A DNA stretch of 55,716 nucleotides. It comes from an uncultured virus (IMG/VR IMGVR_UViG_3300046786_000447). Taxonomy: Duplodnaviria; Heunggongvirae; Uroviricota; Caudoviricetes. The stretch lies in IMG/VR virus record IMGVR_UViG_3300046786_000447. One strand, 5' to 3'. A program made the position numbers and the translations under genes. Shown here one piece after another: positions 2,726-53,904 of this stretch (position 1 is its first letter; each line of letters opens with the position of its first letter). Below the pieces are notes generated by a model, which did no database searches, was not told where the DNA came from, and saw only the letters and a program-made list of their open reading frames with translations.

Positions 2726-4504
2726 TTATATTAGTTTTAATCTATCCAAGTAGTCTTTAACTTCTTTTGGCATAGGTTTATATTGTAGCACAGGTTCCTT
2801 AGCCTTGTCAAGCTCAGTCTTGGGCCTATCTCTGAATGTATGAATCTCTACTTCAAGGTTTAGATCCCTTGGAGTGTGACTTATAGCACCAAAAATGGAA
2901 CCACACACAGCGTCAGCCAAGTCTTTTGAGAGTTTTCGTGGGTGGTCTACATTCTTACCATTCTTAGTAATCTTTAGCTCTGTGAGTTCTTCGAACAAAA
3001 GTTCGATTGCTGGCATAGCCAATCTATCCTCATAGATGAGCATAGCCATGTCCTCATAGTGCTTTTTACCTACAGAGACAGTTTCTGTTCTCATGCCCAC
3101 CTCTGTAAGTTCCTTCTGAATATCAAAAGACTGCCATCTGTCAAACGACACCATTCCGATATTAAAGCCTAGTCTTCTTAGGTTCTGAATCCATTGCTTA
3201 ACTTCTGATAAGTCTACAGGACCTTCAATCTTTGGCTCCCACCAAGCAACTGCATCTACAACAACAATTGGAGATACTTGCTGGTAATCTTTAATCACCT
3301 GAACATTTACCCATTTATCTACGTGGGCAATTGCAACAGCACACTTGTCATGTCTCTGTGCAAGGTCAGCATGAACATAATAAATCTTGTCTGGGTCTGG
3401 CTGGAAGGCTGGCTCAAATCTTCTAAATTGATCAAGAGGATTTCTGATGCTCATTGAGCTTCTTACCTTATCACGCTGTCTAAAGAATGCATCTGTCATG
3501 TATGTAGGTACACATGCAAAACGCTGCATTGCATCTCCCATGTCAGTAAAGAATGAAGTTTTAAAATCATCAATCTTACGTGTTGGATTTACTACCCATG
3601 TAGGTCTCTTTAGTGCAAACACTCCTGGATATTTATATGATACAACCTCATCCTCATCCCACTCAATTTCTAGTGAGTTGCCTTCGGCATCTGCAGGAAG
3701 ATCTTCATTCATAATAAACTTATGTGTCTTGTGGATAACATTCTTATCTGCAATAACATCATCATATCTCTGGGAGATAAAGTCCCCAGGAAAACGAGGA
3801 AAAGATAGCAGTGCTACCTTGCCAAGGTCAGGGAAGCGAGAATCTACAGAAGCTCGGAAAGCTTTGTAGATATTATCTGCAGTCTTGCCCTGTTCGTTAC
3901 CAGTTCCAACTTCTGTAGCAAAACCAGAGATCTCATCAAGCACTGCAAGGATAAGGTTAAGACCCTCATGTGACTCTCGTTCGGAGTGACCTGAGTAAAC
4001 TGTGATGGAGTGATCAAATTCGATAGACTCTGCCTTTGCATTAAACTTTCCTGCAAACCATGGCGACTTTTCAATCTTTGTTTTAAATCCTTTAAAGAAG
4101 ACGTTCTTTGCTTGCTGTGCGTTAATAGCAACGTTAATGATATCAATGGCATCACCACTTGGTTTTCCAAAATACCTTGCAGGATCCTTAAGACATAAAA
4201 GTTTATATACAATGTACGCACACGCAACCGTTGAAGTAAAGTCCTTACCAGATCCTTTACCAAGCTGAAGAATGACCTCATTCTTTGTATACTTTTTATA
4301 ATAGCGTCTTCCTTCTTCTTCTCCCAGAAGATCAATCACATCTTCTAGTTTATAAATTTGTGACATCGCTTCTACGATATCATATTGTATCTGAGATAGT
4401 GGTGGCTGATTGAGATAGTCCTCACCCTCTACAAACTCACGGGCATTGACTGGTCTTTCAGCAAAATTGTCAGACTTGAGTGCATCTAAAAAATCATCAA
4501 ACAT
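2726..4504 (-). CDS. terL: Terminase large subunit
   Basis: Walker A LGKGSGKD, Walker B AVLDE, nuclease motifs HADLA, FDRWQS and DHP...KDLADA. Confidence 0.9.
   Translation of the reverse strand: MFDDFLDALKSDNFAERPVNAREFVEGEDYLNQPPLSQIQYDIVEAMSQIYKLEDVIDLLGEEEGRRYYKKYTKNEVILQLGKGSGKDFTSTVACAYIVYKLLCLKDPARYFGKPSGDAIDIINVAINAQQAKNVFFKGFKTKIEKSPWFAGKFNAKAESIEFDHSITVYSGHSERESHEGLNLILAVLDEISGFATEVGTGNEQGKTADNIYKAFRASVDSRFPDLGKVALLSFPRFPGDFISQRYDDVIADKNVIHKTHKFIMNEDLPADAEGNSLEIEWDEDEVVSYKYPGVFALKRPTWVVNPTRKIDDFKTSFFTDMGDAMQRFACVPTYMTDAFFRQRDKVRSSMSIRNPLDQFRRFEPAFQPDPDKIYYVHADLAQRHDKCAVAIAHVDKWVNVQVIKDYQQVSPIVVVDAVAWWEPKIEGPVDLSEVKQWIQNLRRLGFNIGMVSFDRWQSFDIQKELTEVGMRTETVSVGKKHYEDMAMLIYEDRLAMPAIELLFEELTELKITKNGKNVDHPRKLSKDLADAVCGSIFGAISHTPRDLNLEVEIHTFRDRPKTELDKAKEPVLQYKPMPKEVKDYLDRLKLI
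2782..2811 (-). promoter_or_regulatory. Near-consensus SigA promoter inside the terminase 3' end, pointing at the secreted-protein gene
   Basis: Minus strand TTGACA-N18-TACAAT with TGn extension (TGCTACAAT). Confidence 0.7.
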
Positions 4505-22460: not shown

Positions 22461-23447
22461 TTAGTATATTGTATCATCTGTTGCAGATATGACATGGATA
22501 TCTACTTCCTCGTTTAGAACTGCATTGGCCACTTCAACAACAATTGATCCAGAAGAGTTCATATAAACTGGACTATTTCTTCCATTTGGGTCTGATGTTG
22601 ATGATGGAACATAGTTTTCTAATCTAATTGGATATCTTTTAAAGATTTGTTCTGATGTATTTTGAAGTGCCACAAGATTTGCTCCGCCATACAATGTAGA
22701 TATCTTGCCAAGATTTGATATGTCTGAGTATTCAATATTTGCACCATCTACCATGTCATGTCTTGCTACATTAATTATTTCTACTCCAGTTAGATTTTCA
22801 AATAGAATTTTTTCAAGGTAGGCCTGGGTATATTGCTCAGTTCCTACAACAAGTAGCTCTGGGCCTGCAGGCTTGACTACAGCAATAGAGCCATCATTTT
22901 GTGGAACAGTGTAGGCAACATATGGAGTTGGAAAAAGATCTGTTTGACCAGTTGACTCAATAAGATCGGTTAGAGTCTTTTGTTCAGTTACTTCAACCTC
23001 TTCTTCGATTTTTGTCTCAACTTTTGGAGGCGTAGTAGTATTTGTGGTAGTCTTTGGGGTAGTCTTTGTGGTAGTCTTTGGCTTAGGTTTTACTGGTGGT
23101 GGTACTGGAACAGGCTTTGTGTTTGATTTTATTAATGACTTTCCAGTATTTGGATCAATCATTGGGCCCTGGAATTTTCCAGTGCTAACAGTTTTTAAAG
23201 GAACGTATCCAGATGCTAGTGGTCCACCAACAACCTTAGTGTTTGTCAGCAAGTTTGTAGACTGGGTTTTAGGGAAAGTTGGAAGCAATGGCTTTATAAC
23301 TGGATTGGGCACTACTGGCTTTATGGTTGGAAATAGTGCTTTTACAGGTGCAGCAGTAGGTGCCAACCCTGTCTTAAAGGGAATTAAAGTTGTCTTTGCA
23401 GCTACTGGACCAATAAATCCTTTATCGCCTGGCTTTGGGGCTGCCAT
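22461..23447 (-). CDS. Tail-region protein with Pro/Lys/Thr-rich low-complexity N-terminus
   Basis: PVPVPPPVKPKPKTTTKTTPKTTTNTTTPP; globular C-terminus LFENLTGVEIINVARHDMVDG. Confidence 0.65.
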   Translation of the reverse strand: MAAPKPGDKGFIGPVAAKTTLIPFKTGLAPTAAPVKALFPTIKPVVPNPVIKPLLPTFPKTQSTNLLTNTKVVGGPLASGYVPLKTVSTGKFQGPMIDPNTGKSLIKSNTKPVPVPPPVKPKPKTTTKTTPKTTTNTTTPPKVETKIEEEVEVTEQKTLTDLIESTGQTDLFPTPYVAYTVPQNDGSIAVVKPAGPELLVVGTEQYTQAYLEKILFENLTGVEIINVARHDMVDGANIEYSDISNLGKISTLYGGANLVALQNTSEQIFKRYPIRLENYVPSSTSDPNGRNSPVYMNSSGSIVVEVANAVLNEEVDIHVISATDDTIY

Positions 23448-27710: not shown

Positions 27711-28343
27711 TTATTCCTCTTCTAGCGATACTTGTATATTCCAAAGATCGTGACCTGAATTACCACGCTTAGAAACTGTGTAGTCAAATGAGGAGATGAA
27801 CATCTTTACTGCATATGCATACTGTCCAAGTCTTCTATACCTAAACTCATCTTCTGGTGCAAACTCGGTGTATTTATCATATGATAGGTATACCCAGAAT
27901 GATCCCGTATGGTTTTCATACCAATCTAATAGCTCAACTCCGCCTGCCCCACCATCTACGGTATACTGGTCTGAATTTGGCAAAGATGTATTTCCTGTTG
28001 TATAATCAAAGTTTGGATTTGAGGCAAAACTGCGTGAAGGAAGCAAGTCCCAAGATGTATTTATCTGTAGCTTATCAGCAACGTGGTAGGCTCTCATCTG
28101 ACCATTAACCATACGCTTTCTTGTTTCAATACGGTTATTCTTAAAATCTAATGGCTGACGGTTGTGGTCAGAAAGAATAATAAAATCATTTGACAATGAG
28201 GCGTTTGCTGGTGTGGTTGATCCCACTTCAAACCCCATTGGAACATATTCATTGCTAAGAATCTGAGGAGCGTTATTAGACCACAACATTGCTTGTGGAC
28301 GTGCATACTTTTGTCTGCCTGCTTTATATGCCTGTGATGCCAT
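27711..28343 (-). CDS. Distal tail (Dit-like) protein
   Basis: Immediately after the tape measure; RMVNGQMRAYHVADK...WNIQVSLEE. Confidence 0.65.
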   Translation of the reverse strand: MASQAYKAGRQKYARPQAMLWSNNAPQILSNEYVPMGFEVGSTTPANASLSNDFIILSDHNRQPLDFKNNRIETRKRMVNGQMRAYHVADKLQINTSWDLLPSRSFASNPNFDYTTGNTSLPNSDQYTVDGGAGGVELLDWYENHTGSFWVYLSYDKYTEFAPEDEFRYRRLGQYAYAVKMFISSFDYTVSKRGNSGHDLWNIQVSLEEE

Positions 28344-31300
28344 TATCTTCTAACACCTCTCATGGTTGGGCTGTTTTCTCCCATATTTCTTAGCTTAGCC
28401 ATAACTGTTTGAGCAATCTCATTTGCGTTTGAATCAGTTCTAGCATTAACTGTTAGAGTATAATTATACACTGAATTGGAGTTTGATGACTGAACAACTG
28501 ATGCCCCTCTTGAAATATCTGCAGTAGGAATTGGGTCCATGCCAGAAAGCATTGGAATTGATGGTTCGCTATAGGTTCCAGCGTTGATGGCCTTGAGCAT
28601 TCCACGACCATACTTTCCAACAGAATTTCTATTTACAACAAACTCTCCTGGTGTAAGCATTGCTGGGACATTATCATAGTTTCCAACTCCATCAACTGAT
28701 CCACCTGAGTTATATCCATTTGCAGCAATAACCTTATTTGCAGCCTCTGTCATTCTTATTGCAGTTGTTGTCATTCCTGGTATATTGTAATATGAGCTTG
28801 CCTTAATTAAGTCTTCTTTTGCCTGAGCAACATTAGCAGCAGCCTTAGCAATTTGATCAGAAGTTTTTCCAGCATTAGGATTTGAAGTGGTAGCAGACTG
28901 AACTCCTGCTAAAGGTGCTCCTGCACCAGCATACTTAGTGGTGATTGTATAAAGAGTCTCGTATGTCTTTGGAACTGAATTCCAGTAATCAAGAATCTTT
29001 TTAACTGAATCCTTTGCAATAGAGATTGACTGCTGATACTTTCCAGAACTCATATACGCAAGATCAATATTGTTCTTAATCTCAGTCCATTGCTTCTTTG
29101 TCAAACCACCAGCTGTTACAAGTTCAAGCTGTCTGTCTCTTTCAATAGTAGCAAGTCTTACTCTTTCTTGTGCTGGAACCAACTGCTGCTGCTGAATTTT
29201 AAAGATTTCGTCATTAAGCTTCTTGACCTGTGTTTCAATTTCTACCCTAGAATATCCCTTGTCACTTCTTACACCGCCAAGAGCATCTTTTCTTGATTGT
29301 TCAAGAGCTGTCTGCTGATCCTGCATTGCAAACCCAGCAGCCTGAGATCTCATGTCAAGTGCTGCTCTGGCAGCCTGTGCCATATCTCCAGAAGCAAGTG
29401 CTTGAGCCAAACCAAGCTGACCCTTTTGCTGATTAGAGATACGCTCATTCATTTGAGCAATAGTGTTTAGTGCTTCCTTACGCTTATCGTAAGACTCATT
29501 GATTACCTTCTCTTGGTCTTCTATTCCCTTGAGCTGTGCGTTCCACTGTCCAACTTGATAGTTAATTCCTGAAATCTGATTTTCTGCAGACTTGATTATG
29601 TCATTATCGTTCTTTGTAACATTCTCAAACTGAATTTGAATCTTTTGTTCCTTAGCACTAATCTCTGCCATTGCATTATTAAATCCAGTATTAAACATGT
29701 CTGTAAGACCTTCTACTGTCAATGACTTAATTGCAATTTCTACATTAGCTGCTTCTGCAACTTGCTTAAGCTTTTCATTAAATTCTGTTTGATTAAATTC
29801 TGGGTGAAGAATCATTGTCTGAAGATCCTTATTATTAAGGATTTCAGTCATTTGTTCTTGTGTAAAGTTCTTTGCCTGTGCACCAAGCTTTAGAAGAAGA
29901 GCCTTCTTGTCATTAAATTCCTGTACAGAACTTGCAAGATTTGTTCTTGTATTAAACTCAAGCATAGCATCTGCAGCCTTCTTAGCAGCATTAGCCATTT
30001 GCTGAAGCTTTTCAGGGCTTAGCTTTGAGTTAGCAATTGCAGATGCAGTTGCTTGGTCTGCAACCATTGCATATGCTGTAGCAGTATCTACACCAGCATT
30101 TTTAAGTTTTGCAAGAGCTGATGTTTGGTATCCTGTCATTTTGGCAGATGCCTGTTGCTGATCCATAAACTTACCAAGCTGAATAGATCTCATTGCTTCA
30201 CCAATAGTAACTAGATCATCCTTGAATGACTTAATGTTTCCATTCTTGTCAAAGTTAAATAGAGACTTCTTTCTTTTTTCAAATTCAGCAGGGTCCATGC
30301 CAGCAATTAGCTGAATAACATCTTCTCCAGCACCAAGCTTACGCATGTCATTCTGAAGACCACTGTATAGTGTCATCTCTCTCTTTGCGTTACCCTTACC
30401 GTCCTTGCCTGAGAATAGACCTCTAAGAATCTTCATGTTTGCATCCCAGCCAACCTTTGGAACAATCTGATTCTTTTGAACGTCACGAAGATCTTTTGTT
30501 AGTCCATCAATAGCAGATGCCTGTGGACCACCACTGCCTCCACCACCAGGACCTGGTGCCTTATACTCAACATTTCCAGCAGCCTTTGTTACTGTGTATG
30601 CCTCGTAATTGAGGTATCCAGATAGCTGCTCTGCATCTGTCTTAGCTGCATATGGAGTACCTTCTGGTGTCTTTAGCCATGCTTGCACCAAAGGATCCTT
30701 ATTTGAAACAACCTTCTGAGAAATAACAGCAAGTTCTTGCATGTAAATCTGCTGTTCTTTGTCTGTTAGCTTTGAGAAGTAGTCCCAGTTTTCTCTAAGT
30801 GCCTTCATAGCGACTGAGTCTGCACCAAGAATCTTTGTAGCAATGGTTAGGTCAAACTTACCTTTTTGCTTTGTAATTCCATCAATGATTTCTGTTAGCT
30901 TCTTTTGTACAGCTGGGTTCTTTTCAATGTAGTTTGCCACTACCTTTAGTTCTGGTGAACGTGCAGTACCCTGACCAACTGCTGACCACATAGTCAGAAT
31001 CTTTTGTGCATCTGCTGATGTCTTTGCAGCTTCTACCTTGGCAACAATTGATTTCTGGATAGTCTTATTGCCGTCAAATAGATCGACAACCTGTTGTGTT
31101 TGAGAGCCAGTTGTTCCACCAAACTTAGTAATGATTGTCATCATCTTGTCAATTGACTTTTGGTCATCTCCAAATGTTTCCATAATGGAAATCATTCTCA
31201 TTGGATCAATATTGCCAGATGCCATTTCCATCTTAAGGACATACTTCTGTTCTTTTGTCATTCCTGAGTCATTGACATTTTGAAGTGCTAGAGGAACTAA

Positions 31301-34300
31301 GTCTTCTTGTACTGTACCCTTGTACTTTTTAGTGATAGCCTTTTCTGCACCAGACATTAATGCATCTTGAACTTCTCCGCTAGACCCCTTAAAGTTTGTG
31401 GCTATAGCCTGTACAGTTTCTGCTTGCTGATCAAGTAGTCCCTGTCTGTCTGTCAGATATTGGTTTGTAAGCTTTTCTGCCTCTGCCTGCTTTCCAGCAG
31501 CCATAAGATTTGCATACTTCTTTTCATACTCTTGGTCAAGAGAGTCAAGCATTTGCTGTTCTACTTCAAGCTCTTGCTTTTGCATTGCAATAGCTGCTGC
31601 AGAAGAAGCACCAATTCTCTTTTGTCTATCTCTTTGCTGGAAGATTCCACCTGCAATAGCACCAACAATAGCACCACCAATAGCACCAACAGCAGTACCA
31701 ATAATTGGGACCGCAGATCCAACGATAGCTCCTGCTGCTGCACCAGCTGCAGCTCCACCACCGATACCAAGAGCTGTATTTCCAACATCTCCCATTGTCC
31801 AGCCACTTGCCTTCTTTAGACCCTTCATGGCAACATCTGACTTAGATCTCTGGTCCTCAATTAGCTTTGTACGGATAGACATTCCATCCTTAAGAACATT
31901 TTCTCCATTTGGACCAAGAAGAGTAACTAGCTGAGCATTAGCCTTAATAGAGAAAGAAGAGTCTCCAAGTTGCTCTCCAATTGCAGCAACATAGCTTCTA
32001 GCTTGTTGTGCTGACATTGCTCCAGTCATAACAGCTGAAGCAGCTTGTGCAACTATAGAAGAGCTTGCTGAGGCTGCACCATTTTGCTTAATGTTTTGCT
32101 TAACAGAAGAAAGCATTCCCTTGCCCTCTTCGCTACCAACAAAAGCCTGCCCCCAGGTTGTCTTTCCAGTTTGAATCTGGAATGGGTTAATACCAGCTTC
32201 TCTACGCTTACGCATAATCTCTGTTGCTGAAACAGTTCCTGCAAACTTGCTAAATCCTTCAATCGCTGAGGTTGATGCACCCACCTTTTCGCTAAAATCT
32301 AATACTGAATTTTGAGCATCATCAAATGCCTTCTTTTGTGCATATGTAGCAGCTACCAAAGCACCCACTGCAACCACTGCAGCACCAACTGGAGAAGTAA
32401 GCATAGGAAGGATAGATGTAACAGCACCTGCAATAGGTAGTGCCTTTTGTGCTGTCTCTCCAACTGGACCAGGAATTGCTGATGCTACTGCAAGTGCAGA
32501 TGTAACACCCATACCAATTCCAGTAGCTTTTCCAACTAATGCCTTTGTTCTATTTTGTGGAGCATCTGGACCAAAGCTCTCATCAGAGAAGGCCATTCTT
32601 GCATTGAGTCTACGACCCATCTTTGAATTATTAAACTTAGAGCCAAGTCTTGACTGATCAAATCTATCCATCAGTGTTGGATTTAGATTTGGTCCACGTC
32701 CTCCACCTGCTGAAGCAACACCCTCTGCTGCAGCATCTCCAACTTTCTTACCAGCTGCTCTTGCAGCTGCTTGCTCTGCTTCTACACCCTGATTAGTTCT
32801 TCTTGCTTGTTCACGTCCAGCCTGAGTTGATTCCTCAGCACCTGACTTTGCACCCTTAATAAATCCATCTGCACCATTCTTACCAGCCTTCTCAGCTTTC
32901 TTAGATGGTGACTTAGCCTCTAGACCCTTATTTGCTCCATCAGCAAATCCATCTGAAGCAGACTCAACAAACTTGATCCCTAGACGCTTTGCTGATGCCT
33001 TAAGCATTGCTAGACGCTTTGCAGAATCCTTCTCCTGAAGAAGTTCCTTAAATGCCTGTGGGTCTTGGTCTCTAACCTGTCTTGCAGTTTCATAGGTACC
33101 GCTAGCAAATTGTCTCTTTGCAATCTTTGCCAAATAAGGCTTGTCTGGGTTTTCAGAGTACTGAACGCCAGCATCATAATTAGCGTCTCTGGTTGTTTGT
33201 CTCTTGTACCACTCACGCATGCGTGATAGTGAAAGTCTGTTGTTTGAACCTGAAGTTGTCTTCTGTACAGAAGCAATACCAGAAATTTCTGACATCTCAC
33301 CATAGGCAGTTGCCAATTCTTGGTTTCTAGATGCTACCTTGCTATATGCATTCTGCATAATTCTGTCAAGGTCATCGCCAGAAATCTTTACATCCTTAGC
33401 TGCCTTTCCAGTCTTAGTAATGAAATCCTGAATACCTGCATCTACTTCATCCGCTAGGTCTACCATTGTAGACTTAATTTTCTCTGGATCTACTCCAGCT
33501 CTTGCCATATAGTTTGCAGCCATACCATGTGCCTGGCCTCTTTGGCCTGCATACTCTTCCTGAACCATATCGGCAGGTGCTGCTCCACCCTTTGCTCCTG
33601 ACTGACCAAGCATTGTATTTAGAGCCATTGACTGACCAACTACTCTGTTGTCATAAACCTGGAACTCATGCGTAAGCATGTCTTCGTACTTAACTACGTT
33701 TCCAGAAATTTCTGAAAGAAGCTTTGCCTGTGATGCTAGTCTTTGCTTGATTGCAGCAAGGTCTGCATCATTCTTTGCCATGTCCAAAAGCTGTTGTCCA
33801 GTTGCTGACTGATAGCCAGAGAAGTGTCCTTGGCTATACCCAAATCCTGTTGCAACAGACTTTGAACCATTTGCAAATCCTGGAACATTAATTCTTCTTC
33901 CAGTAAGAAGTGCAGCAACAACTCCAGGGTTTTTGTTTACTGTATCTACAGAAAGCACAACCTCACCATTTGATAGGTTGGCTGGGATTGCATCATCCTT
34001 TGGACCACCAGGACCAGTTACAACGACACCACCACTTGCAAAATTCTTTGGCTTAGTTGGTCTTGTATTTGGAACTGGACCACCAGAGAATCCACGCTGT
34101 GCTGTAATTGCTCTTTGATATGCAGCTGTAAGCATGTCAACAGCATTGGCTTCGGAAGTAAAAGTTTGCTTTAGTGCTGCGTGAGCCTGCTCAAGAGAAG
34201 AGGCTGCAGAAGCTGCTTCCATCTGTGCTTGTGTCATAAACTGTGTTTGTGAGCCAAGATCCTGAGATGCACCACCTGCACCATTGAATACTCTCTTAAC

Positions 34301-36034
34301 TGCTGTAAATAGCTTAATAATGTTAGCTACGCCGTTAGCAAGAAGACCAAATGTCATAAGTGCTACTGGTCCAATACCTGCAAGAATTGCAGTTAGGGTT
34401 ACAACAAACTTCTTAGCACCATCACTAAGGCCGTTAAACTTTTCTAGAATTCCACCAATGAATTGTACAACTGGTGTAATTGCCTTTAGGAATTGCTCAC
34501 CAATAGGTACCAATGTGTTCTTTAGATCTTCAATTGCTTTCTTGAACTTGTAAAGTGGAGAGTTCTCCATTGTCTTCATTTCTCGTTCAGAAAGAATTGC
34601 AAGTTCTTCTGCTGTTGCGTTTGACAACTCAAGGACCTTATTTGCTTGAGAACCTTCTGCAATAACGTTCTGGAACAATGTAGACATACGTGCAAACTGG
34701 AACTTACCAAATAGCTTTTCAATAGCCTGTGCACGGTTTAGTGGATCTAGCTTATCAAGTGCTTCTGCAAAGCCAATAACAGTACCCTTTAGATCACCCT
34801 TGTTAGCTTCTACTAGTCCCTTGATATTAATACCAAAACTACCAAGGAATTCTGATGCTGCCTTTGTTGGGTTAATCATAGATGCAAGACCAGACTTAAG
34901 TGCGTTAGCACCTTCTGCTGCATTTACACCACCCTCACGCATAGCTGTGAGGAAGAATGTTAGATCTTCTACGCTACCACCAAGTTGCTGAATAACTGGT
35001 GCAGCTTTAGGAATTGCAGTTGTAAGGTCATCGATAGATGTAACAGTTTGGTTTTCAACTGCGTTAAGGAAGTTTGTCTTCTTTGCTAGATCTTCTGCTG
35101 CAATACCAAAAGCGTTAGTAAGTGAGATAGTTGTTTCCAAAGCCTGTTGCTGATCAATACCGCCAAGGACTGCAAGCTTTGTTGCTGATGCAACCTGCTC
35201 CATAAGCTCTGCACCTTGCTTACCAGTTGCAGCTGCATCTGCAGCGAGCTTAATTGTATCTGCTACTGCAATGCCATACTTTGTATAGTCAGAAGCAAGC
35301 TTTCGAATATCCTCAGACATCGCCATTGCATCTGAAGAAGAGGTTTGAAGATCTCCATAGACTCTCTTAAATCTAATCATCTGAGTTTCAACATCAGAGA
35401 ATGCCTTGGCTGCTTGAGACCCAAACATCATAAGTGGAATTGTAAAACCAACCATGAGCTGACGACCAGCCCACTGTGTATTCTTACCAAAGTTTAGAAG
35501 GTTTGTAGAACCTTGCTGAAGAAGCTGATTAAGAATCTGTGTTCTTTGAGCAGCCATCTGTGTCTTGGTGCCAAGATCTTCCATGTCAAGTGCAAGCGGT
35601 CTAACCTTAATTGCTTGAATTGCACCATTGGCATCTTTACCAAGTTTGATGTATTGTGTCTGTAAATCTTTTACACGTTCACGTGTGACTGTGCTAATTG
35701 TTTCAAACTCTTGGGCAAACATCTTGCCAAATGTTTTTGTAGCAGCACCAGTATATCTAAAGTACTCACGAAGAGTAAACTGATTCTTTTCTAGGGCAGT
35801 TGTAAATGCCTCTGTAGTTGAAGCAACACTAGTAAATTGAGCTGAGAACTTACCAGTTGCATTAATCTGATTTACAAGATTATTAGCAAGATTATTTGAT
35901 GCTGCTTGTGCAGCAGCACCACCCTTTGCCATTGATGTATGAAAGGCTGAGATCTCTCTTTGCAGAGCCCTTAAATTGGCTAGAGCTTGAGACGCATCAA
36001 TATTAATATTAATATTGGATTCGACATCAGCCAT
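28343..36034 (-). CDS. Tape measure protein (2563 aa)
   Basis: TP901-type core (GANALKSGLASMINPT), GGxVxGPG...D.IPA.LS.GE.V motifs, hydrophobic segments, coiled coils; follows the chaperones. Confidence 0.93.
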   Translation of the reverse strand: MADVESNININIDASQALANLRALQREISAFHTSMAKGGAAAQAASNNLANNLVNQINATGKFSAQFTSVASTTEAFTTALEKNQFTLREYFRYTGAATKTFGKMFAQEFETISTVTRERVKDLQTQYIKLGKDANGAIQAIKVRPLALDMEDLGTKTQMAAQRTQILNQLLQQGSTNLLNFGKNTQWAGRQLMVGFTIPLMMFGSQAAKAFSDVETQMIRFKRVYGDLQTSSSDAMAMSEDIRKLASDYTKYGIAVADTIKLAADAAATGKQGAELMEQVASATKLAVLGGIDQQQALETTISLTNAFGIAAEDLAKKTNFLNAVENQTVTSIDDLTTAIPKAAPVIQQLGGSVEDLTFFLTAMREGGVNAAEGANALKSGLASMINPTKAASEFLGSFGINIKGLVEANKGDLKGTVIGFAEALDKLDPLNRAQAIEKLFGKFQFARMSTLFQNVIAEGSQANKVLELSNATAEELAILSEREMKTMENSPLYKFKKAIEDLKNTLVPIGEQFLKAITPVVQFIGGILEKFNGLSDGAKKFVVTLTAILAGIGPVALMTFGLLANGVANIIKLFTAVKRVFNGAGGASQDLGSQTQFMTQAQMEAASAASSLEQAHAALKQTFTSEANAVDMLTAAYQRAITAQRGFSGGPVPNTRPTKPKNFASGGVVVTGPGGPKDDAIPANLSNGEVVLSVDTVNKNPGVVAALLTGRRINVPGFANGSKSVATGFGYSQGHFSGYQSATGQQLLDMAKNDADLAAIKQRLASQAKLLSEISGNVVKYEDMLTHEFQVYDNRVVGQSMALNTMLGQSGAKGGAAPADMVQEEYAGQRGQAHGMAANYMARAGVDPEKIKSTMVDLADEVDAGIQDFITKTGKAAKDVKISGDDLDRIMQNAYSKVASRNQELATAYGEMSEISGIASVQKTTSGSNNRLSLSRMREWYKRQTTRDANYDAGVQYSENPDKPYLAKIAKRQFASGTYETARQVRDQDPQAFKELLQEKDSAKRLAMLKASAKRLGIKFVESASDGFADGANKGLEAKSPSKKAEKAGKNGADGFIKGAKSGAEESTQAGREQARRTNQGVEAEQAAARAAGKKVGDAAAEGVASAGGGRGPNLNPTLMDRFDQSRLGSKFNNSKMGRRLNARMAFSDESFGPDAPQNRTKALVGKATGIGMGVTSALAVASAIPGPVGETAQKALPIAGAVTSILPMLTSPVGAAVVAVGALVAATYAQKKAFDDAQNSVLDFSEKVGASTSAIEGFSKFAGTVSATEIMRKRREAGINPFQIQTGKTTWGQAFVGSEEGKGMLSSVKQNIKQNGAASASSSIVAQAASAVMTGAMSAQQARSYVAAIGEQLGDSSFSIKANAQLVTLLGPNGENVLKDGMSIRTKLIEDQRSKSDVAMKGLKKASGWTMGDVGNTALGIGGGAAAGAAAGAIVGSAVPIIGTAVGAIGGAIVGAIAGGIFQQRDRQKRIGASSAAAIAMQKQELEVEQQMLDSLDQEYEKKYANLMAAGKQAEAEKLTNQYLTDRQGLLDQQAETVQAIATNFKGSSGEVQDALMSGAEKAITKKYKGTVQEDLVPLALQNVNDSGMTKEQKYVLKMEMASGNIDPMRMISIMETFGDDQKSIDKMMTIITKFGGTTGSQTQQVVDLFDGNKTIQKSIVAKVEAAKTSADAQKILTMWSAVGQGTARSPELKVVANYIEKNPAVQKKLTEIIDGITKQKGKFDLTIATKILGADSVAMKALRENWDYFSKLTDKEQQIYMQELAVISQKVVSNKDPLVQAWLKTPEGTPYAAKTDAEQLSGYLNYEAYTVTKAAGNVEYKAPGPGGGGSGGPQASAIDGLTKDLRDVQKNQIVPKVGWDANMKILRGLFSGKDGKGNAKREMTLYSGLQNDMRKLGAGEDVIQLIAGMDPAEFEKRKKSLFNFDKNGNIKSFKDDLVTIGEAMRSIQLGKFMDQQQASAKMTGYQTSALAKLKNAGVDTATAYAMVADQATASAIANSKLSPEKLQQMANAAKKAADAMLEFNTRTNLASSVQEFNDKKALLLKLGAQAKNFTQEQMTEILNNKDLQTMILHPEFNQTEFNEKLKQVAEAANVEIAIKSLTVEGLTDMFNTGFNNAMAEISAKEQKIQIQFENVTKNDNDIIKSAENQISGINYQVGQWNAQLKGIEDQEKVINESYDKRKEALNTIAQMNERISNQQKGQLGLAQALASGDMAQAARAALDMRSQAAGFAMQDQQTALEQSRKDALGGVRSDKGYSRVEIETQVKKLNDEIFKIQQQQLVPAQERVRLATIERDRQLELVTAGGLTKKQWTEIKNNIDLAYMSSGKYQQSISIAKDSVKKILDYWNSVPKTYETLYTITTKYAGAGAPLAGVQSATTSNPNAGKTSDQIAKAAANVAQAKEDLIKASSYYNIPGMTTTAIRMTEAANKVIAANGYNSGGSVDGVGNYDNVPAMLTPGEFVVNRNSVGKYGRGMLKAINAGTYSEPSIPMLSGMDPIPTADISRGASVVQSSNSNSVYNYTLTVNARTDSNANEIAQTVMAKLRNMGENSPTMRGVRR

Positions 36035-41006: not shown

Positions 41007-42140
41007 TTATGAATCTGAAGCAGCGTCTGCGAACGCAATAGCGTCCTGCTCTTCCCACTGGATACCAAAGCGTACGAATACTGTATATTCTACAGTGTCC
41101 TTCTTTGGCTTGTATTCACGGTTTACAGTGATGTCTCTCTGGAAACCCCAAACACGGTTGGTTGGGAATGTAAGGTCAACGTAACCTTCTGGGTAGTAAG
41201 GAACTTCCTGTACGTCAATTCCTAGAACACGAGTTGTACGTGCTCCACCGAATGTCTGACCATTACCATCAAGGTATGCCTGACGGTTTGCAGGTGTACC
41301 AGCAGGTGTACCAGCAAATGCTTCAGCGATTGCGTCAGCAAGAGTACCATTGTGCTTTACGATACCAGCAAATGCGTCTGTACCAGCGTAGAACTTAAGG
41401 TTATTCTTAAGTGCACGGTACTTACGAGGCATAGCAAGGATGAGCTTCTGCATAACTTCTGGAGTCCATGCATTGTCAGCAACTGTTACGATTGCTTCGT
41501 GTGCATCTCCGCCAGTCTTAACCTTCTTAACAAAACCAGTCATGATGTTCAAGAAAGCATCATTTCCTGTTCCTGTACCATTAATGGCAAGGTCTTCGAT
41601 GTCATTAGCAAAAGCATTTGTCATAAGACGTACTAGGTGATCCTCAAGAGCACCACCCTCAATACCATCTTCCATAGCTTCAGCAGATACTTCCCAGTCA
41701 AGACGAATCTTCTTGGTTGTAAGCTCTACCTTAGAGAATGTAGCACCAGTGTTTGTGTAGTCACCGTTTGCCTGTGCAGCAGCACGGATAACACGCTCAC
41801 CAACGTTAACCTTCTCAAGTTCCATGGTGTTGGCTCTCATTGTTACCTTGCGACCATCCTGTGCAAGAACGGTAGCGTCCCAAACATAATCAATAAATCT
41901 ACGAGCCTGTTCTGGGCGAAGAATACCACTACCTGCATCACCTGAAGGGTTGACGGCATTTGGTCCTGTTGTTACACCATAGTTTGCTGTTGGAATATTT
42001 CCTACGGCACCACCTGTTGAGTAGTTACCTGGAATGTTCGCACCAGCGTCTGATCCTGATGCGAATGCACCCTCACCGTTGTATAGGCCTGAGTCTGCAC
42101 CGTCTGCATCTGGATTATTTTTCTTAATTTCTTCCGACAT
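41007..42140 (-). CDS. Major capsid protein (HK97 fold)
   Basis: GILRPEQARRFID...LTTKKIRLDWEVS..EDGIEG...FANDIEDLAINGT; AGGAGGTG RBS. Confidence 0.93.
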   Translation of the reverse strand: MSEEIKKNNPDADGADSGLYNGEGAFASGSDAGANIPGNYSTGGAVGNIPTANYGVTTGPNAVNPSGDAGSGILRPEQARRFIDYVWDATVLAQDGRKVTMRANTMELEKVNVGERVIRAAAQANGDYTNTGATFSKVELTTKKIRLDWEVSAEAMEDGIEGGALEDHLVRLMTNAFANDIEDLAINGTGTGNDAFLNIMTGFVKKVKTGGDAHEAIVTVADNAWTPEVMQKLILAMPRKYRALKNNLKFYAGTDAFAGIVKHNGTLADAIAEAFAGTPAGTPANRQAYLDGNGQTFGGARTTRVLGIDVQEVPYYPEGYVDLTFPTNRVWGFQRDITVNREYKPKKDTVEYTVFVRFGIQWEEQDAIAFADAASDS

Positions 42141-49334: not shown

Positions 49335-49862
49335 TCATACTATGCGAGTAAACCAACGTGGAGTTGTATATCTTATTCCTTCTGAAATAGGTCTAACACC
49401 ATGGATATAGTCTGGATTGTCTGGGAACATCAAAAGATCTCCAGGCTCTGGCTTATGGCTAATATCATATTCTGGGAAGTATATGTCTCCACCATTGTAA
49501 TCACTATTAATATAAATAAGGGTAGCAATATCATTTGGCTTACTTGCGTCATAATGTTCGTGCATACCCCAGCCTGATTCAAATCTAGCTATGTGAGACA
49601 TATGTGGCTCAAAATCTTTAAACTGTCCGCCATATGTTTCTACAACTAGATCATATACCTTTTTGCCCCATTCAGTGACTAAATTAGATACATGAAGAGT
49701 TTCTTGATTTTGATCTTTAAAAACATTTACCGTAAACTCTTTTTCGTTGTTTCCAAATTCAGTAAACTTATCATCATTTTTAATAGAGTAGTCAAGTATT
49801 ACATCTACTACATCCTTTGGCATAAAGCCTTTAATATAGTGAATCTTTGATGCATCTTTCAT
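49335..49862 (-). CDS. Prolyl-4-hydroxylase-like 2OG-Fe(II) oxygenase
   Basis: HEHYD...ATLIYINSDYNGGDIYFP...PGDLLMFP...HGVRPISEGIRYT; start reassigned to MKDASK. Confidence 0.9.
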   Translation of the reverse strand: MKDASKIHYIKGFMPKDVVDVILDYSIKNDDKFTEFGNNEKEFTVNVFKDQNQETLHVSNLVTEWGKKVYDLVVETYGGQFKDFEPHMSHIARFESGWGMHEHYDASKPNDIATLIYINSDYNGGDIYFPEYDISHKPEPGDLLMFPDNPDYIHGVRPISEGIRYTTPRWFTRIV

Positions 49863-50011
49863 GAGAATGTCGCTCCTTGGTGTTTTGGCACATTTGTTGC
49901 ACCACAATTATTGCAGGTAAGTTTTACTATTCCAGTTACTGGACAAGCTTCTCCCCTGACTACATCATGCGACCTTAGTTTACAAATGATCGCCTTTAAC
50001 CACTTCTTCAT
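49859..50011 (-). CDS. Small Cys/His protein (50 aa, not in ORF track)
   Basis: Manual translation MKKWLKAIICKLRSHDVVRGEACPVTGIVKLTCNNCGATNVPKHQGATFS; ATGA overlaps at both ends. Confidence 0.72.
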   Translation of the reverse strand: MKKWLKAIICKLRSHDVVRGEACPVTGIVKLTCNNCGATNVPKHQGATFS

Positions 50012-50667
50012 GCTAGCTTTACCCAATGGCTTCCAACAAACTTTTCTCCATTTACATCCTTTGGAGATATATCATACGCAATAGTAAGTCTCTTACCGTT
50101 CCATCCCCAATTTTCAATAGCGTGTGGATGTCCAGTTTCAGATACAATAAGTCTGTTATTTTTATTAATATTTTCAAATAGATTATTTTGGTCTCTACCA
50201 ATGTGATATAGAGTTGTTGATGGTTCAGCATTGACACAGAAATATCCATGAAATACTGGTGCACCAATACCCTTCATATGGTCATGGAACCACTCTGGGT
50301 GGTTTCTTGGGGACTCGCCACCATAGACACTATTCTCAAATGTATTAAACCATCCATTTATATAGTAGTCTTCAGACTCAAAGTCAATTCCGTAGTACTC
50401 ACAAGCCTCTTTAGTTGTTTCTAAAAGGGCACCATACAATTCCTTTAATGCTGGGTGATCCCATGTAAAAATATTATAGTAATCACCCAACATTGTAGTA
50501 AGAGCATCTCCACGATCTTTCTTAGCTTTAAAAATATCTTCAGGTGCACCAATTCCATTTGAATAGATAAAATCAGTCTTTTGCCATAGATATTCCGAAA
50601 GACTGTCTAAGTCAATAGACAGTGTTCTTTCAAAGAATTTATGTGGAGGTTTGCTCATACTAATCAT
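50008..50667 (-). CDS. Putative 2OG-Fe(II) oxygenase (HxH type, TIGR02466-like), paralog 2
   Basis: INGWFN...WFHDH...FHGYFCV...GHPHA...RLTIAYDI; start MISMSK by ATGA overlap. Confidence 0.75.
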   Translation of the reverse strand: MISMSKPPHKFFERTLSIDLDSLSEYLWQKTDFIYSNGIGAPEDIFKAKKDRGDALTTMLGDYYNIFTWDHPALKELYGALLETTKEACEYYGIDFESEDYYINGWFNTFENSVYGGESPRNHPEWFHDHMKGIGAPVFHGYFCVNAEPSTTLYHIGRDQNNLFENINKNNRLIVSETGHPHAIENWGWNGKRLTIAYDISPKDVNGEKFVGSHWVKLA

Positions 50668-51347
50668 GCCAAAGGAATCCAATGCTGCTCATGCTCGTAT
50701 CCTGCATTCTGTAGTGATGCAAGAGGAGTCACATCGTATGCAACTGTGATTCTTGGACCATCCCAGTCCCAACCACCCATTGCATGTGGATGACCCATTT
50801 CTGAAAGAATTGCACGATTATTCTTGTTTACGTTGATCTTATACTCATCATAAACTTGATAATGTGTTTCTGAAGGTTCTGCAATAACTGCGTAATAACC
50901 ATGGAAGTCTGGTGCTCCACGTCCTCCATGCTCATGCCACCCAAGCTTACCGCCCTTAGCATGATTAATGTTGAACCATCCCTGAATCATGAACTGTTCT
51001 TTTTCAAAGTCAAGGCCATAGTATTCACATGCTTCTCTTGTCATGTCTCCTACTGCCTTGTATAGATTATAGATTCCAGGAATGTGGAACTGAAAGACAT
51101 TGTATTGTCTCCACTTCATTGTAGAGATACTTCCAGAGTCCTTCCATGCCTCCATAGGACCAACTGGTGTAACACCATTGATCTTTGCTTGCTCAATTAG
51201 AGCATATCTATCTTGTAATTCTTTTGCCAAAACATCAAGGTCGTTGTCCAAAAATCGCTCAAAGAACTTGTGTGGTTGTGGTGATTGGCTGATGCTCTTC
51301 ATTGGTGCTTGACCAGGTCTAGATTGCATATCCATCTCATACTCCAT
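50664..51347 (-). CDS. Putative 2OG-Fe(II) oxygenase (HxH type, TIGR02466-like), paralog 1
   Basis: IQGWFN...GWHEH...FHGYYAV...GHPHA...RITVAYDV; true start may be 51335 (GGAG upstream). Confidence 0.75.
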   Translation of the reverse strand: MEYEMDMQSRPGQAPMKSISQSPQPHKFFERFLDNDLDVLAKELQDRYALIEQAKINGVTPVGPMEAWKDSGSISTMKWRQYNVFQFHIPGIYNLYKAVGDMTREACEYYGLDFEKEQFMIQGWFNINHAKGGKLGWHEHGGRGAPDFHGYYAVIAEPSETHYQVYDEYKINVNKNNRAILSEMGHPHAMGGWDWDGPRITVAYDVTPLASLQNAGYEHEQHWIPLA

Positions 51348-51375: not shown

Positions 51376-51618
51376 TTATCTGAAGCTGAATACTTTGAAT
51401 GGAGCAAAGCTAAATACTGAGAAGAATCCAAATACCCCGAAGAAGCCAAATACGCCAAAGAAGCCAAAAACAGCAAATGGGGTAAAGTTAAAGACACCAA
51501 AAAAGTTAAACACAGCAAACGGCGTAAAGTTAAACACACCAAAGAAGTTAAACACAGAGAATGGTGTGAAGTTAAACACACCAAAGAAGTTAAACACTGA
51601 GAATGGGACAAACGAGAA
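51376..51618 (-). repeat. Coding tandem repeat of FxFxPFxV and FxFF(G/S)V units
   Basis: Last 80 codons; 14-aa unit FNFFGVFNFTPF(S/A)V x3 plus FGFF(G/S)V x3; synonymous codons vary between copies. Confidence 0.95.
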
Positions 51619-52215
51619 CGTAGTGATTGAGTTTGAAGCTGCACCTGCAGATGTACCATTGTCATTTACAGCTGTAATTGTATATGTTTGTGCTGTACCC
51701 TGCTCTTGAGTAACGTTAATTGAGGTAGAGGCTGTTGATCCAGACTTTCCGTCATCAGAAGACCAGTTATATCCAGTAATTGCCTTGCCACCATTTGATG
51801 CTGGGGCAGTCCAGGAAACTGTGTCATAATCTGCACCAGAAGGTGAAGATGCTGATGGAGATACAGGTGCTGATGGAACTGTAGTTACAGTAACTGAAGA
51901 TGATGCAGAGGATGCTACAGAGTTACCAGCAGCATTTGATGCAACGACTGTTGCTGTAACTGATGCTCCTGTAGCAATTCCTCCGACAACAATTGGAGAT
52001 GAAGATCCTGAACCAGTCTGTCCACTTGACAGCGTAACTGTGTAAGATGTAGCAGCTGGAGAATCAGCTGGTAGCCCAAATGTAACTGAAACTGCACCAT
52101 TATCGTATGCTCTATTAGTTCCAACATCAGATGCTGTTACGTTTATTGGTGCTTTTGGCTCCAAGAAGTCATTCGATGATTGCGAATGTCTACCTGCCTT
52201 CTTACCTGCTGCCAT
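51376..52215 (-). CDS. Two-FN3-domain protein with C-terminal Phe-rich repeat tail
   Basis: PKAPINVTAS...SYTVT...VASNAAGNS and PSAP...VSWTAPASNGGKAITGY...ITAVNDNGTS; GGGAGA RBS. Confidence 0.85.
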   Translation of the reverse strand: MAAGKKAGRHSQSSNDFLEPKAPINVTASDVGTNRAYDNGAVSVTFGLPADSPAATSYTVTLSSGQTGSGSSSPIVVGGIATGASVTATVVASNAAGNSVASSASSSVTVTTVPSAPVSPSASSPSGADYDTVSWTAPASNGGKAITGYNWSSDDGKSGSTASTSINVTQEQGTAQTYTITAVNDNGTSAGAASNSITTFSFVPFSVFNFFGVFNFTPFSVFNFFGVFNFTPFAVFNFFGVFNFTPFAVFGFFGVFGFFGVFGFFSVFSFAPFKVFSFR

Positions 52216-52245: not shown

Positions 52246-53904
52246 TTAAGCTATTAGGTCTCCGTAGACAACCCAAGTGTTTGCTGCTCTCTTCATAAGA
52301 GTTGCAGAAGACCACTGAGTTCTCAACTTTAGACCTGGTGTTGCGTTTACAGTAACTCCACCTGCACCTTCAATTGTTACCTGTCCACTAGAAGTCTGTA
52401 GGATATCAAGTGTGGTTCCAATTGGATAGTTGACTGTTGAGTCTGTTGGGATAGTTAGAGTTGTAGCAGAAGAGCTTCCAACTTCAATAAGAGTATCTCT
52501 TTCATTAAGGTTTGACAATGTGTATGACGCTGTCTTCTGAGAGATTGTAGTTATAGATGGAACACCCTGCTTTGTCTGGATTCCGTCTGAGAACTCTACC
52601 CCACCAAGCTTAAGTGTATCGAAATTAGCTGTAGCGAAGTCAACCTCAGAGTCAGTAGGCTCTGCACCATTAGAGATAAGCTTCCACTTACCATCAGATG
52701 CGTCACGAACAAGACCAGTGTGAGGGTGGTTTCCACCATTATTTCCAGATGTTCCATAAGCACCATAGATACCAATGTCAAGAACGTCAGCAGAATACTG
52801 GTTCTTAGCTAGGTAGATAAGAGAGTCTGTTACTGCAAGATTCTGAGAATTAACAGTTGTAGTTGTTCCAGTAACGTTTAGGTTACCTGTGATCTCAACA
52901 TCAGCAGCAGTTAGTGTTCCAGTAAATGTTGGGCTAGCTTTTGGAGCATAGATTGTAGCAGCTGAAGTAGCTGCAGCAGTCTGAGCATCTGAAGCCTTTC
53001 CATCTGCATATGTCTTTGTAGCAAGTGCTGAGGTATCAGCAATTCCATGAACATTTGTAGTATCATCTGAGTGTGTAGAAACAGCTGAATCTGCATATGT
53101 CTTAGTTGCTAGAGCTGAAGTGTCTGCAATACCGTGGACATTTGTAGAGTCTGATGCGTGTGTAGAAATCTGTGTATCTGTGTATGCATTTGCATTATCT
53201 TCAGCATTTCCTACAGCAGTTGAGATTTCACCAGTGATTGTTGTGTGAAGGTCAGAGTCTGCTTGTGTTGCAAAATTTTGTGCAGCTGTCTGAGCATTTG
53301 ATATATCCACTCCAAGATCTGAACGAATTCCTTCGTCAGCAGCAGTGACTGCATCTGTAGCAAAAGTTTGTGCCTCTGTTTTAGCTGTAGCAATTGCCTC
53401 GTTTCTCAAAACTACCTCAGCGTCTACTAGTTCACCAGCTGAAGTGGCTGACTCTGTAGTCGCTGCAGTAATTGCTTCTGTTTTAGCTGTAGCAATTGCC
53501 GAATCTCTAGCTGCCATTTCAGCTTCAATTGCATCTGCAATGGATGTCTGAACAATGCCACCAACATCTGTAATGCTGTCTGCAAGCTCTTTAAGTGTAT
53601 TAAGTGTACCTGGAGCTGAATCAATGACGTTTGTTAGTTGTGATAGTGGAATAGATGCACTACCATCAAGCGTAGCAACACCATTTGCAGCACCCTTCTC
53701 AGTTAAGAGGATATAATCATCTAGGCTTCCACCTAGGTCTTCAAGGTTCTTGAAGTATGAGATGTCATCCCACGCTGTGGTTCCATCACCAATCTTGAAC
53801 TGACCTGTATCGGTCTCAAATCCAATTTCACCTGCAGAGAGAATGGGGTTTGCAGCAGTCCATTGTGCTGCAGTACCTCTGCGTTGCTGCATTCTTGTTG
53901 CCAT
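52246..53904 (-). CDS. Tail fibre-like protein with Mtd_N/hyaluronidase-type N-terminal domain
   Basis: QRRGTAAQWTAANPILSAGEIGFETDTGQFKIGDGTTAW; APGTLNTLKELA; C-terminal LRTQWSSATLMKRAANTWVVYGDL. Confidence 0.8.
   Translation of the reverse strand: MATRMQQRRGTAAQWTAANPILSAGEIGFETDTGQFKIGDGTTAWDDISYFKNLEDLGGSLDDYILLTEKGAANGVATLDGSASIPLSQLTNVIDSAPGTLNTLKELADSITDVGGIVQTSIADAIEAEMAARDSAIATAKTEAITAATTESATSAGELVDAEVVLRNEAIATAKTEAQTFATDAVTAADEGIRSDLGVDISNAQTAAQNFATQADSDLHTTITGEISTAVGNAEDNANAYTDTQISTHASDSTNVHGIADTSALATKTYADSAVSTHSDDTTNVHGIADTSALATKTYADGKASDAQTAAATSAATIYAPKASPTFTGTLTAADVEITGNLNVTGTTTTVNSQNLAVTDSLIYLAKNQYSADVLDIGIYGAYGTSGNNGGNHPHTGLVRDASDGKWKLISNGAEPTDSEVDFATANFDTLKLGGVEFSDGIQTKQGVPSITTISQKTASYTLSNLNERDTLIEVGSSSATTLTIPTDSTVNYPIGTTLDILQTSSGQVTIEGAGGVTVNATPGLKLRTQWSSATLMKRAANTWVVYGDLIA
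53000..53166 (-). repeat. Tandem 87-bp (29-aa) duplication in the fibre shaft
   Basis: STHASDSTNVHGIADTSALATKTYADSAV / STHSDDTTNVHGIADTSALATKTYADG. Confidence 0.9.

Follow-up and report, generated by a model that had tools for sequence, protein, structure and literature searches.

The window, i.e., the whole stretch of 55,716 nucleotides that was analyzed, is the second half of a phage genome record of 117,716 bases (118 kb), which carries portal, protease, capsid, tape measure, DnaE, and RecA genes. The genes at the locus are arranged in the order Mtd_N fiber gene, tail gene, three oxygenase genes, and head block (Table 1). The tail gene is an ORF of 279 amino acids (52215-51376) with a ribosome-binding-like site, GGGAG, located 6 bases 5' of its ATG. 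A promoter and terminator scan returned 13 promoter-like sites, as compared with 13.7 in shuffles, and nothing usable. Contigs of RNA run X6, a library that may contain DNA, cover most of the tail gene and both PF13759-type oxygenase (OX5) genes. Elsewhere in the window, a 592-aa ORF (2726-4504) shows weak matches to terminase-large-subunit PHROGs over short stretches, and the tape measure protein (28343-36034) is 2563 aa long. Short tandem repeats were seen in the minor tail, tape measure, capsid, and Mtd_N fiber genes (23035-23081, 31654-31700, 41290-41316, and 53002-53168).

Matching records come from freshwater metagenomes, and no match was found among 50,697 GenBank phages, i.e., among cultured phages. 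The four matches in bacterial genomes are all located in metagenome-assembled bins and are read as phage contigs. The genome contains a WhiB gene, which we take to be a marker of an actinobacterial host, and the phage is therefore likely to infect Actinobacteria.

Table 1 Features of the tail locus and of other regions of the genome; positions refer to the window unless preceded by a record (G) or locus (L) handle
Feature	Position	Strand	Description
Mtd_N fiber-type protein, upstream neighbor	52246..53904	minus	PF18454, E 5e-16; minor tail and tail spike PHROGs; context, outside the module
Conserved basic N-terminal peptide	52156..52215	minus	Putative virion-docking segment
Two fibronectin type III (FN3) domains	51619..52155	minus	Residues ~21-112 and ~113-199; pLDDT mostly >90, all-beta
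Phe-rich repeat tail and stop codon	51376..51618	minus	Residues 200-279; F-x-(F/V) triplets broken by x-P dipeptides
PF13759-type Fe(II)/2-oxoglutarate oxygenase A (OX5)	50664..51347	minus	H138-E-H140...H186, R199
PF13759-type oxygenase B, paralogue of A	50008..50682	minus	H133-D-H135...H185 and Arg; 43% identical to A; overlaps the stop of A
55-aa ORF	49859..50026	minus	Has four Cys and one His and may be a zinc micro-protein; fills the interval from oxygenase B to the PF13640 gene
PF13640 prolyl-4-hydroxylase-like oxygenase	49335..49907	minus	H118-Y-D120...H169, R179; phrog_61
PASTA-domain protein with 85-residue tail	G000:C1:1893-2396 (L082:1498-2001)	minus (L082)	Outside the window; 34 Phe per 80 residues
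Second gene cluster	G000:C1:47185-54685 (L338)		~60 kb from the tail gene; carbamoyltransferase, two PF13640-like, GT19, two DUF6065-like, c17, unknown, and tetrapyrrole-methylase-like genes
Sugar-modification genes	G000:C1:32000-44600 (L339)		PF11397 and GT61 glycosyltransferases, nucleotidyltransferase-HAD fusion, NAD-dependent epimerase, C-methyltransferase; WhiB also located here
Collagen-repeat protein	G000:C1:4587-5471 (L340)		Among the fiber genes

The protein encoded by the tail gene has no Pfam match at E 0.01 and none in PHROG or NCBIfam, and PF00041 passes on most of its homologues. In its predicted structure two FN3 domains are modeled with confidence, in agreement with the initial annotation, in which the repeat was taken to belong to a protein with FN3 domains. 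A Foldseek search reaches E 5e-26 to an FN3 phage protein, with its highest-ranking matches to FN3 proteins from uncultured phages and to Microbacterium phage minor tail proteins. In the N-terminal peptide, K5, G8, S11, N15, D16, F17, L18, and P20 are kept at ≥90% among 63 orthologues.

The last 80 residues of the protein are encoded by 51618-51379 on the minus strand and are followed by the stop codon (51378-51376). Their composition is 35 F, 12 V, 8 G, 6 N, 6 S, 5 P, 3 A, 3 T, 1 K, and 1 R; the tail is thus without Leu, Ile, and Met. A recount of the translated ORF agrees with the 35 Phe and the lack of acidic residues that had been recorded initially. The grammar F-x-F-(x-P)-F-x-V describes 11 units covering 76 of the 80 residues, a cover that was reached in none of 20,000 shuffles of the tail residues. 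Three Phe and a final Val per full unit, as first described, hold for all 11 units. The strict alternation of 8- and 6-residue units that had been claimed applies to the first eight units and is lost thereafter (8,6,8,6,8,6,8,6,6,6,8,4).

Tail-bearing proteins in this and related phages

Among 8,000 candidates, 680 proteins match the family, and an FN3 profile score >150 bits defines 263 unique orthologues; ~910 viral stretches are estimated to match the family patterns. A catalogue of C-terminal repeats in homologues had been suggested as a check, and the aromatic repeat directly follows the second FN3 domain in all 263 orthologues. These tails have a median length of 59 residues (range 10-147) and a median Phe content of 39%, and their wording varies by phage: FGFTP, FGFSP with FGV, GAF, YSFTP, PPFF, PHFP, PSFCP, or Tyr-Asn. 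The family-wide lack of Leu, Ile, Asp, and Glu in the tails is partly circular because the tail-finding score penalizes these residues, and the make-up of the window tail alone is used here. The three-residue rhythm common to Gly-rich and Pro-rich tails might fit a polyproline II helix.

In 110 of the 263 orthologues, a Hint domain begins 0-9 residues after the repeat, and the others stop at or near the repeat. Bacterial intein-like (BIL) domains offer the closest comparison: the Hint profile matches the BIL structure 2lwy (E 1e-4) and gp41-1 inteins, with Pfam scores below cut-off, and a PDB sequence search with a single Hint sequence gave a best match of only E 0.016. As in BIL domains, position 1 is Cys or Ser (110/110) and many of the domains end in His-Asn. 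Unlike BIL domains, many others end in His-Asp, Tyr-Asp, or Phe-Asp (the last residue is Asn in 55 and Asp in 41 of the 110), and about half lack the block-B His (His 57, Glu 35, Gln 18). The window protein itself has no Hint domain, and its stop codon follows the repeat. By analogy with the BIL chemistry described in the accessible part of PMC7765530, the repeat would end the mature chain in either case, via the stop codon or via Hint self-cleavage. The FN3 tree shows 13 gains or losses of the Hint domain, whose presence does not track enzyme type.

Several related loci depart from this layout. A small Cys-rich, knot-like end takes the place of a stop or Hint in some tails (P0044, P0089, P0091, P0097, L008, L052, and L058). 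In the FN3 gene of L007 and L010, the FN3 pair is separated from a long Gly-Ala-Phe repeat with Hint by an inserted Pro-Val stalk and small Cys motif. In L214, L278, and L304, the slot is occupied by another N-terminal domain with a Tyr/His/Gly/Phe repeat and Hint, followed by DUF6065-like and OX5 genes. At L146:7923-8765 onward, a single OX5 gene comes after a tandem pair of FN3 genes, each of which has a Tyr-Asn-Phe tail.

Only one other protein in the genome carries such a tail. This second carrier is a PASTA-domain protein, and its tail is identical to that of the FN3 protein in grammar and in the last four residues. Per 80 residues, the tail protein reaches 35 Phe and the second carrier 34, and all other ORFs have at most 13 (91 genome ORFs of ≥150 aa). 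The two tails have at most 17 bases of DNA in common, and a recent copy between them is therefore unlikely. Relatives of the PASTA carrier, for which a single-sequence search found one locus, have an N-terminal G-x-W...K-G-M motif in common. In related phages, second carriers are located 4-10 kb upstream and resemble the tail of their own genome. The 4-mer cosine between tails is 0.75 within genomes vs 0.19 between genomes (31 unique pairs, which include near relatives; 0 of 20,000 permutations), and the own-genome tail ranks first in only 15 of the 31 pairs.

Oxygenase genes and their association with tail type

The three genes behind the tail gene are predicted to encode Fe(II)/2-oxoglutarate dioxygenases with intact metal ligands. 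The third matches PF13640 with E 3e-8 (34.9 bits against a cut-off of 27). The two OX5 genes have no Pfam, PHROG, or NCBIfam match, and their PF13759 label comes from ESM Atlas neighbors only, where OX5 falls with PF13759 clusters at 0.96. The model of oxygenase A (pLDDT 80) is a double-stranded beta-helix matching 2rg4, 3bvc, and PHD2 at E 4e-6 to 1e-5, and oxygenase B is assigned to this fold by its 43% identity to A. PDB searches with the OX5 profile and with the DUF6065-like profile found nothing, and the 55-aa Cys/His ORF has no Pfam or PHROG match.

In the second cluster, GT19 is a weakly PF11397-like glycosyltransferase and c17 is a gene of no assigned family; the OX5 and c17 profiles are unrelated. 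The DUF6065-like genes have a conserved Cys. In FGFTP phages, the gene set of this cluster lies directly behind the tail gene, and some relatives' cassettes add Asp/Asn hydroxylase and sulfotransferase genes. The PF11397 match in the source genome reaches E 4e-16. In the tail-less record G007 (L330:1775-5250), PF11397, PF13640, and DUF6065 genes come after the gene of an FN3 protein that has a short Pro run and whose end is rich in Cys, which hints that such enzymes also serve non-Phe tails.

The association between tails and enzymes was estimated from 110 unique tail loci, of which 2 cut loci were dropped, leaving 108 for comparison. For proline-rich tails, the adjacent genes include DUF6065 and no fewer than two PF13640 genes at 44/44 loci, and OX5 at none. 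Among the 64 low-proline tails, OX5 or a degenerate form of it is present in 54, and two PF13640 genes occur within the first five genes in 1. When loci were found by their flanking genes, oxygenase-type genes (PF13640, OX5, Asp/Asn hydroxylase, or DUF6065-like) were counted in the slot in 25 of 25 loci with a tail vs 2 of 23 without. A wider set that includes tail-selected loci, placed on a tree of the three upstream genes, gives 79/79 with a tail vs 0/24 without. On this tree, 5/5 independent pairs agree (P = 0.0625), and proline type vs cassette also yields five pairs. The tail-less loci L203 and L311, with DUF6065-like genes in the slot, are outside this set because both are without a marker gene. 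Where the slot has no tail gene, the fiber gene usually abuts a ribonucleotide reductase gene.

Adjacent genes can travel as one block; therefore, whole records were searched, using the 18 that are ≥90% complete. OX5, c17, and GT19 are all held by 11/11 records with low-proline tails; in 9 of these 11, a distance of 49-62 kb separates c17 and GT19 from the tail gene, and OX5 occurs only far away in 4. None of the three genes is present in the complete proline-rich (4) or tail-less (2) records, and G031 is cut at the slot. The number of PF13640 matches per complete record is 8-10 in proline-rich, 1-6 in low-proline, and 0-1 in tail-less records. On trees of head and replication genes built for the complete records, the tail types are interleaved, with 4-5 changes and 2-4 supported pairs (P = 0.125-0.5). 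The FN3 tree has one supported independent pair. The BIG tree has two, one of them false (the 20-residue tail of L030 falls below the cut-off), and on it the tail-less loci come close to forming a single clade. Tail type tracks enzyme type with no exception among complete records, an association that is not significant after phylogeny is taken into account. Independent switches are too few on all of the trees, the best value being the P = 0.0625 of the wider set of loci. The initial annotation had mentioned neither this match nor the oxygenase genes, the second carrier, and the Hint domain of relatives.

OX5 also accompanies unlike tails, namely Gly-Ala-Phe, Tyr-Asn, and Tyr-Ser-Phe-Thr-Pro. 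A prolyl hydroxylase together with PF11397 presumably corresponds to the Skp1-type hydroxyproline glycosylation pathway. This candidate is not supported: PF11397 does not accompany proline-rich tails, being absent from 4/4 complete proline-rich records, and occurs in tail-less G001 and G007. Since DUF6065-like and PF11397 genes are present in tail-less G001 and PF11397 is missing with proline-rich tails, the glycosylation step is weak.

Proposed function and its precedents

On balance, and on the evidence of sequence, we lean toward reading the tail as a displayed, flexible virion segment and a substrate for hydroxylation by the Fe(II)/2-oxoglutarate oxygenases that the phage itself encodes. 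Attachment to the particle may be the task of the basic N-terminal peptide, and the tail would be held outward by the FN3 domains. The tail would become the mature C-terminus, by the stop codon here and by Hint self-cleavage in the 110 orthologues with that domain. The two PF13759-type enzymes may then act on the F-x-(F/V) triplets, at the Phe beta-carbon or at the small x residue, the PF13640 enzyme may act on the x-P prolines, and the cluster ~60 kb away may add further groups. The finished, variable segment might serve adhesion or host-surface recognition, a role suggested by the tail-less relatives, whose FN3 proteins end in glycine-rich domains. Beyond gene content, we infer each of these steps, and the virion location is deduced from gene position and fold.

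A more ambitious version is tentative at best, and we would sooner doubt it than accept it. Here the genome would hold an allele-matched tailoring code, in which one aromatic repeat "dialect" is placed on several unrelated virion appendages together with a matching oxygenase/transferase set partly ~60 kb away. The PF13759-type enzyme would read the low-proline dialect by oxidizing protein Phe, and the resulting aromatic polymer, hydroxylated or cross-linked, would provide a variable surface for adhesion or receptor binding.

Tail-less relatives provide a close structural parallel. The FN3 proteins with a glycine-rich (PF21722) domain in related phages, which we take to be of the fiber/adhesin type, are like the tail protein in having a matching gene block, an FN3 stalk, and a variable C-terminal module. 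They differ in that the module is a Gly-rich folded domain with no Phe repeat, and both complete records are without OX5, c17, and GT19.

That a dioxygenase modifies a co-encoded protein has been predicted before (Iyer et al. 2010, PMC2938197). The accessible part of that paper describes a tandem dioxygenase array in Synechococcus phage Syn9 with a conserved-Cys dUTPase-fold gene, and proposes that bacterial beta-hydroxylases and sulfotransferases modify co-encoded collagen-like or tail-collar proteins. The present locus resembles the Syn9 array in its tandem phage Fe/2OG dioxygenases and conserved-Cys companion gene, and we infer that the DUF6065-like genes correspond to the dUTPase-fold gene of that array. 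Similarly, like the bacterial operons of PMC2938197, relatives here add Asp/Asn hydroxylase and sulfotransferase genes. Unlike the present locus, the phage arrays in that part of PMC2938197 are treated as secondary-metabolite pathways, with no substrate gene named, and its proposed protein substrates are Gly-rich or tail-collar proteins, whereas the tail here is Phe-rich. The second carrier, the Hint cap, and the match of tail type with enzyme type occur here and are not described in the same part of PMC2938197. A search of the open literature found no account of Phe-rich tails on phage FN3 proteins, of second carriers, or of the type match. The present analysis adds the enzyme match with unlinked genes in complete genomes.

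The chlorovirus PBCV-1 prolyl 4-hydroxylase, reportedly the subject of work by Eriksson in 1999, is the other viral precedent. According to the accessible part of PMC7019647, this enzyme works on Pro-containing peptides and no hydroxyproline was found in purified virions; thus, a virus can encode such an enzyme alongside Pro-rich genes and still show no hydroxyproline in its particles. The PF13640 gene here belongs to the same broad superfamily. The two cases differ in that PBCV-1 is a eukaryotic virus, with no role for the enzyme given as known in that part of PMC7019647, whereas the present one is a bacteriophage in which the candidate substrate is the adjacent gene. Furthermore, set against the PBCV-1 enzyme as described there, the candidate substrate here has only 5 Pro in 80 residues and the two nearest enzymes are PF13759-type.

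The locus thus names a candidate substrate for orphan oxygenases, as well as two natural alternatives with mutually exclusive enzyme sets. To our knowledge, aquatic phages hold many Fe/2OG oxygenase genes without known substrate, which are usually filed as auxiliary metabolic genes. Because a candidate substrate, alternative tails, and small soluble enzymes are at hand, the proposal is testable by peptides and mass spectrometry, including a cross-specificity control. If the proposal is true, virions would be modified in a way of a new kind, the chemistry on peptidyl phenylalanine may itself be new, and the tails would contribute to the diversity of host range among phages that infect freshwater Actinobacteria.

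Alternative explanations

The tail could instead be an unmodified self-assembling or sticky aromatic segment (a beta-solenoid, cross-beta zipper, or condensate) through which FN3 and PASTA proteins are gathered in one appendage, in which case their shared grammar would reflect co-assembly and the oxygenases would act elsewhere. We consider this unlikely, although it is the most serious of the competitors. The rigid triplet grammar, with 44% Phe and only 6% Pro in the window tail, and the second carrier with its identical grammar are in its favor, and in relatives the Hint domain, as a cleavable cap, might prevent a sticky segment from coming out of solution. A Pro content of 29-46% is incompatible with cross-beta or solenoid folds, and this is the content of 45 of 110 orthologous tails. 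The grammar also varies by phage, so that the tails do not form a Pro-poor, fixed-register repeat family. With sister tails of up to 46% proline, a family-wide beta-solenoid or amyloid, the function put forward in the initial annotation, is unlikely, whereas self-assembly of the window's own tail may occur. Furthermore, tail length varies from 10 to 147 residues, and the tail has pLDDT 39-64 and no secondary structure in an AlphaFold2 model made with 63 orthologues, which as a monomer model is weak evidence; homotrimer prediction of the full protein scored 0.00 both times and weighs neither way. Self-assembly also leaves the match of tail type and enzyme type, including genes 49-62 kb away, unexplained.

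A recognition tag or scaffold would account equally well for this co-variation. The tail would bind the oxygenases or a partner, and the chemistry would take place on other virion proteins, a small molecule, or a glycan. The collagen-repeat protein is a possible alternative substrate of the prolyl hydroxylase, the genome has many sugar-nucleotide and glycosyltransferase genes, and phage dioxygenase arrays are read as secondary-metabolite pathways in the accessible part of Iyer et al. (2010, PMC2938197). This reading is nonetheless improbable, given that PF13640 numbers rise with tail proline content, as expected if the prolines are the substrate, and that 10-30 repeats would seem to exceed the need of a tag.

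Two further explanations are considered very unlikely. In a RiPP-like precursor, the repeats would be tandem core peptides that are oxidized, cut out, and released as small Phe-rich peptides. A precursor gene followed by tailoring enzymes is indeed the layout found here, and relatives have the self-processing Hint domain, but the units are contiguous with no spacer or cleavage motif between them, and no protease is among the annotated families of the 27 cassette proteins scanned. Moreover, the carriers are FN3 and PASTA proteins within virion fiber genes, and Hint cleavage would leave the tail attached to the FN3 part.

There is similarly little to recommend the tail as a hydrophobic anchor that holds the FN3 and PASTA domains in the infected-cell membrane or an envelope, off the virion, with a role in exclusion or assembly. 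The mean hydropathy is 1.33 and the best 19-residue window reaches 2.13, high enough for a transmembrane segment, with one basic residue at the end; Arg is also the C-terminal residue in 41 of 153 Hint-less orthologues. However, a helix would need an unbroken stretch of ~19 helix-forming residues, and the longest run free of Pro and Gly in the tail is 8, i.e., Pro or Gly occurs at least every 9 residues, which upholds the initial view that this is not a plain transmembrane helix. There is no apparent signal peptide, Leu and Ile are absent from the window tail, and the gene lies among fiber genes.

An assembly artefact or functionless neutral slippage has a negligible probability, given that contigs from two other studies (runs X4 and X5, not flagged as the source) cross the tail without a single difference or gap, which rules out the artefact, and that such a tail is present in 263/263 orthologues. 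The DNA does keep traces of duplication. Units 2 and 4 are identical at the DNA level, a 42-bp array is detected (3.6 copies, 86%), and repeat-to-repeat codon identity is 150/235 (64%) vs the ~49% that codon use in the genome would predict. The codon pairs compared between units of equal length comprise 63 synonymous differences, 35 non-synonymous ones, and 72 identities. The initial annotation had taken differing synonymous codons as a sign of upkeep at the protein level and of no recent slippage; the excess of silent differences bears out the first part, and the identical units, the array, and the codon identity speak against the second. Taken together, the excess of codon identity and that of silent over replacement differences indicate that the tail was made by duplication and has been maintained by selection on the protein.

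A 740-base contig, 4-9x deeper than the phage in runs X4 and X5, matches 51412-51460 and 52258-52306 with 636 other letters between them, and is a co-occurring relative with a shorter allele of the gene slot.
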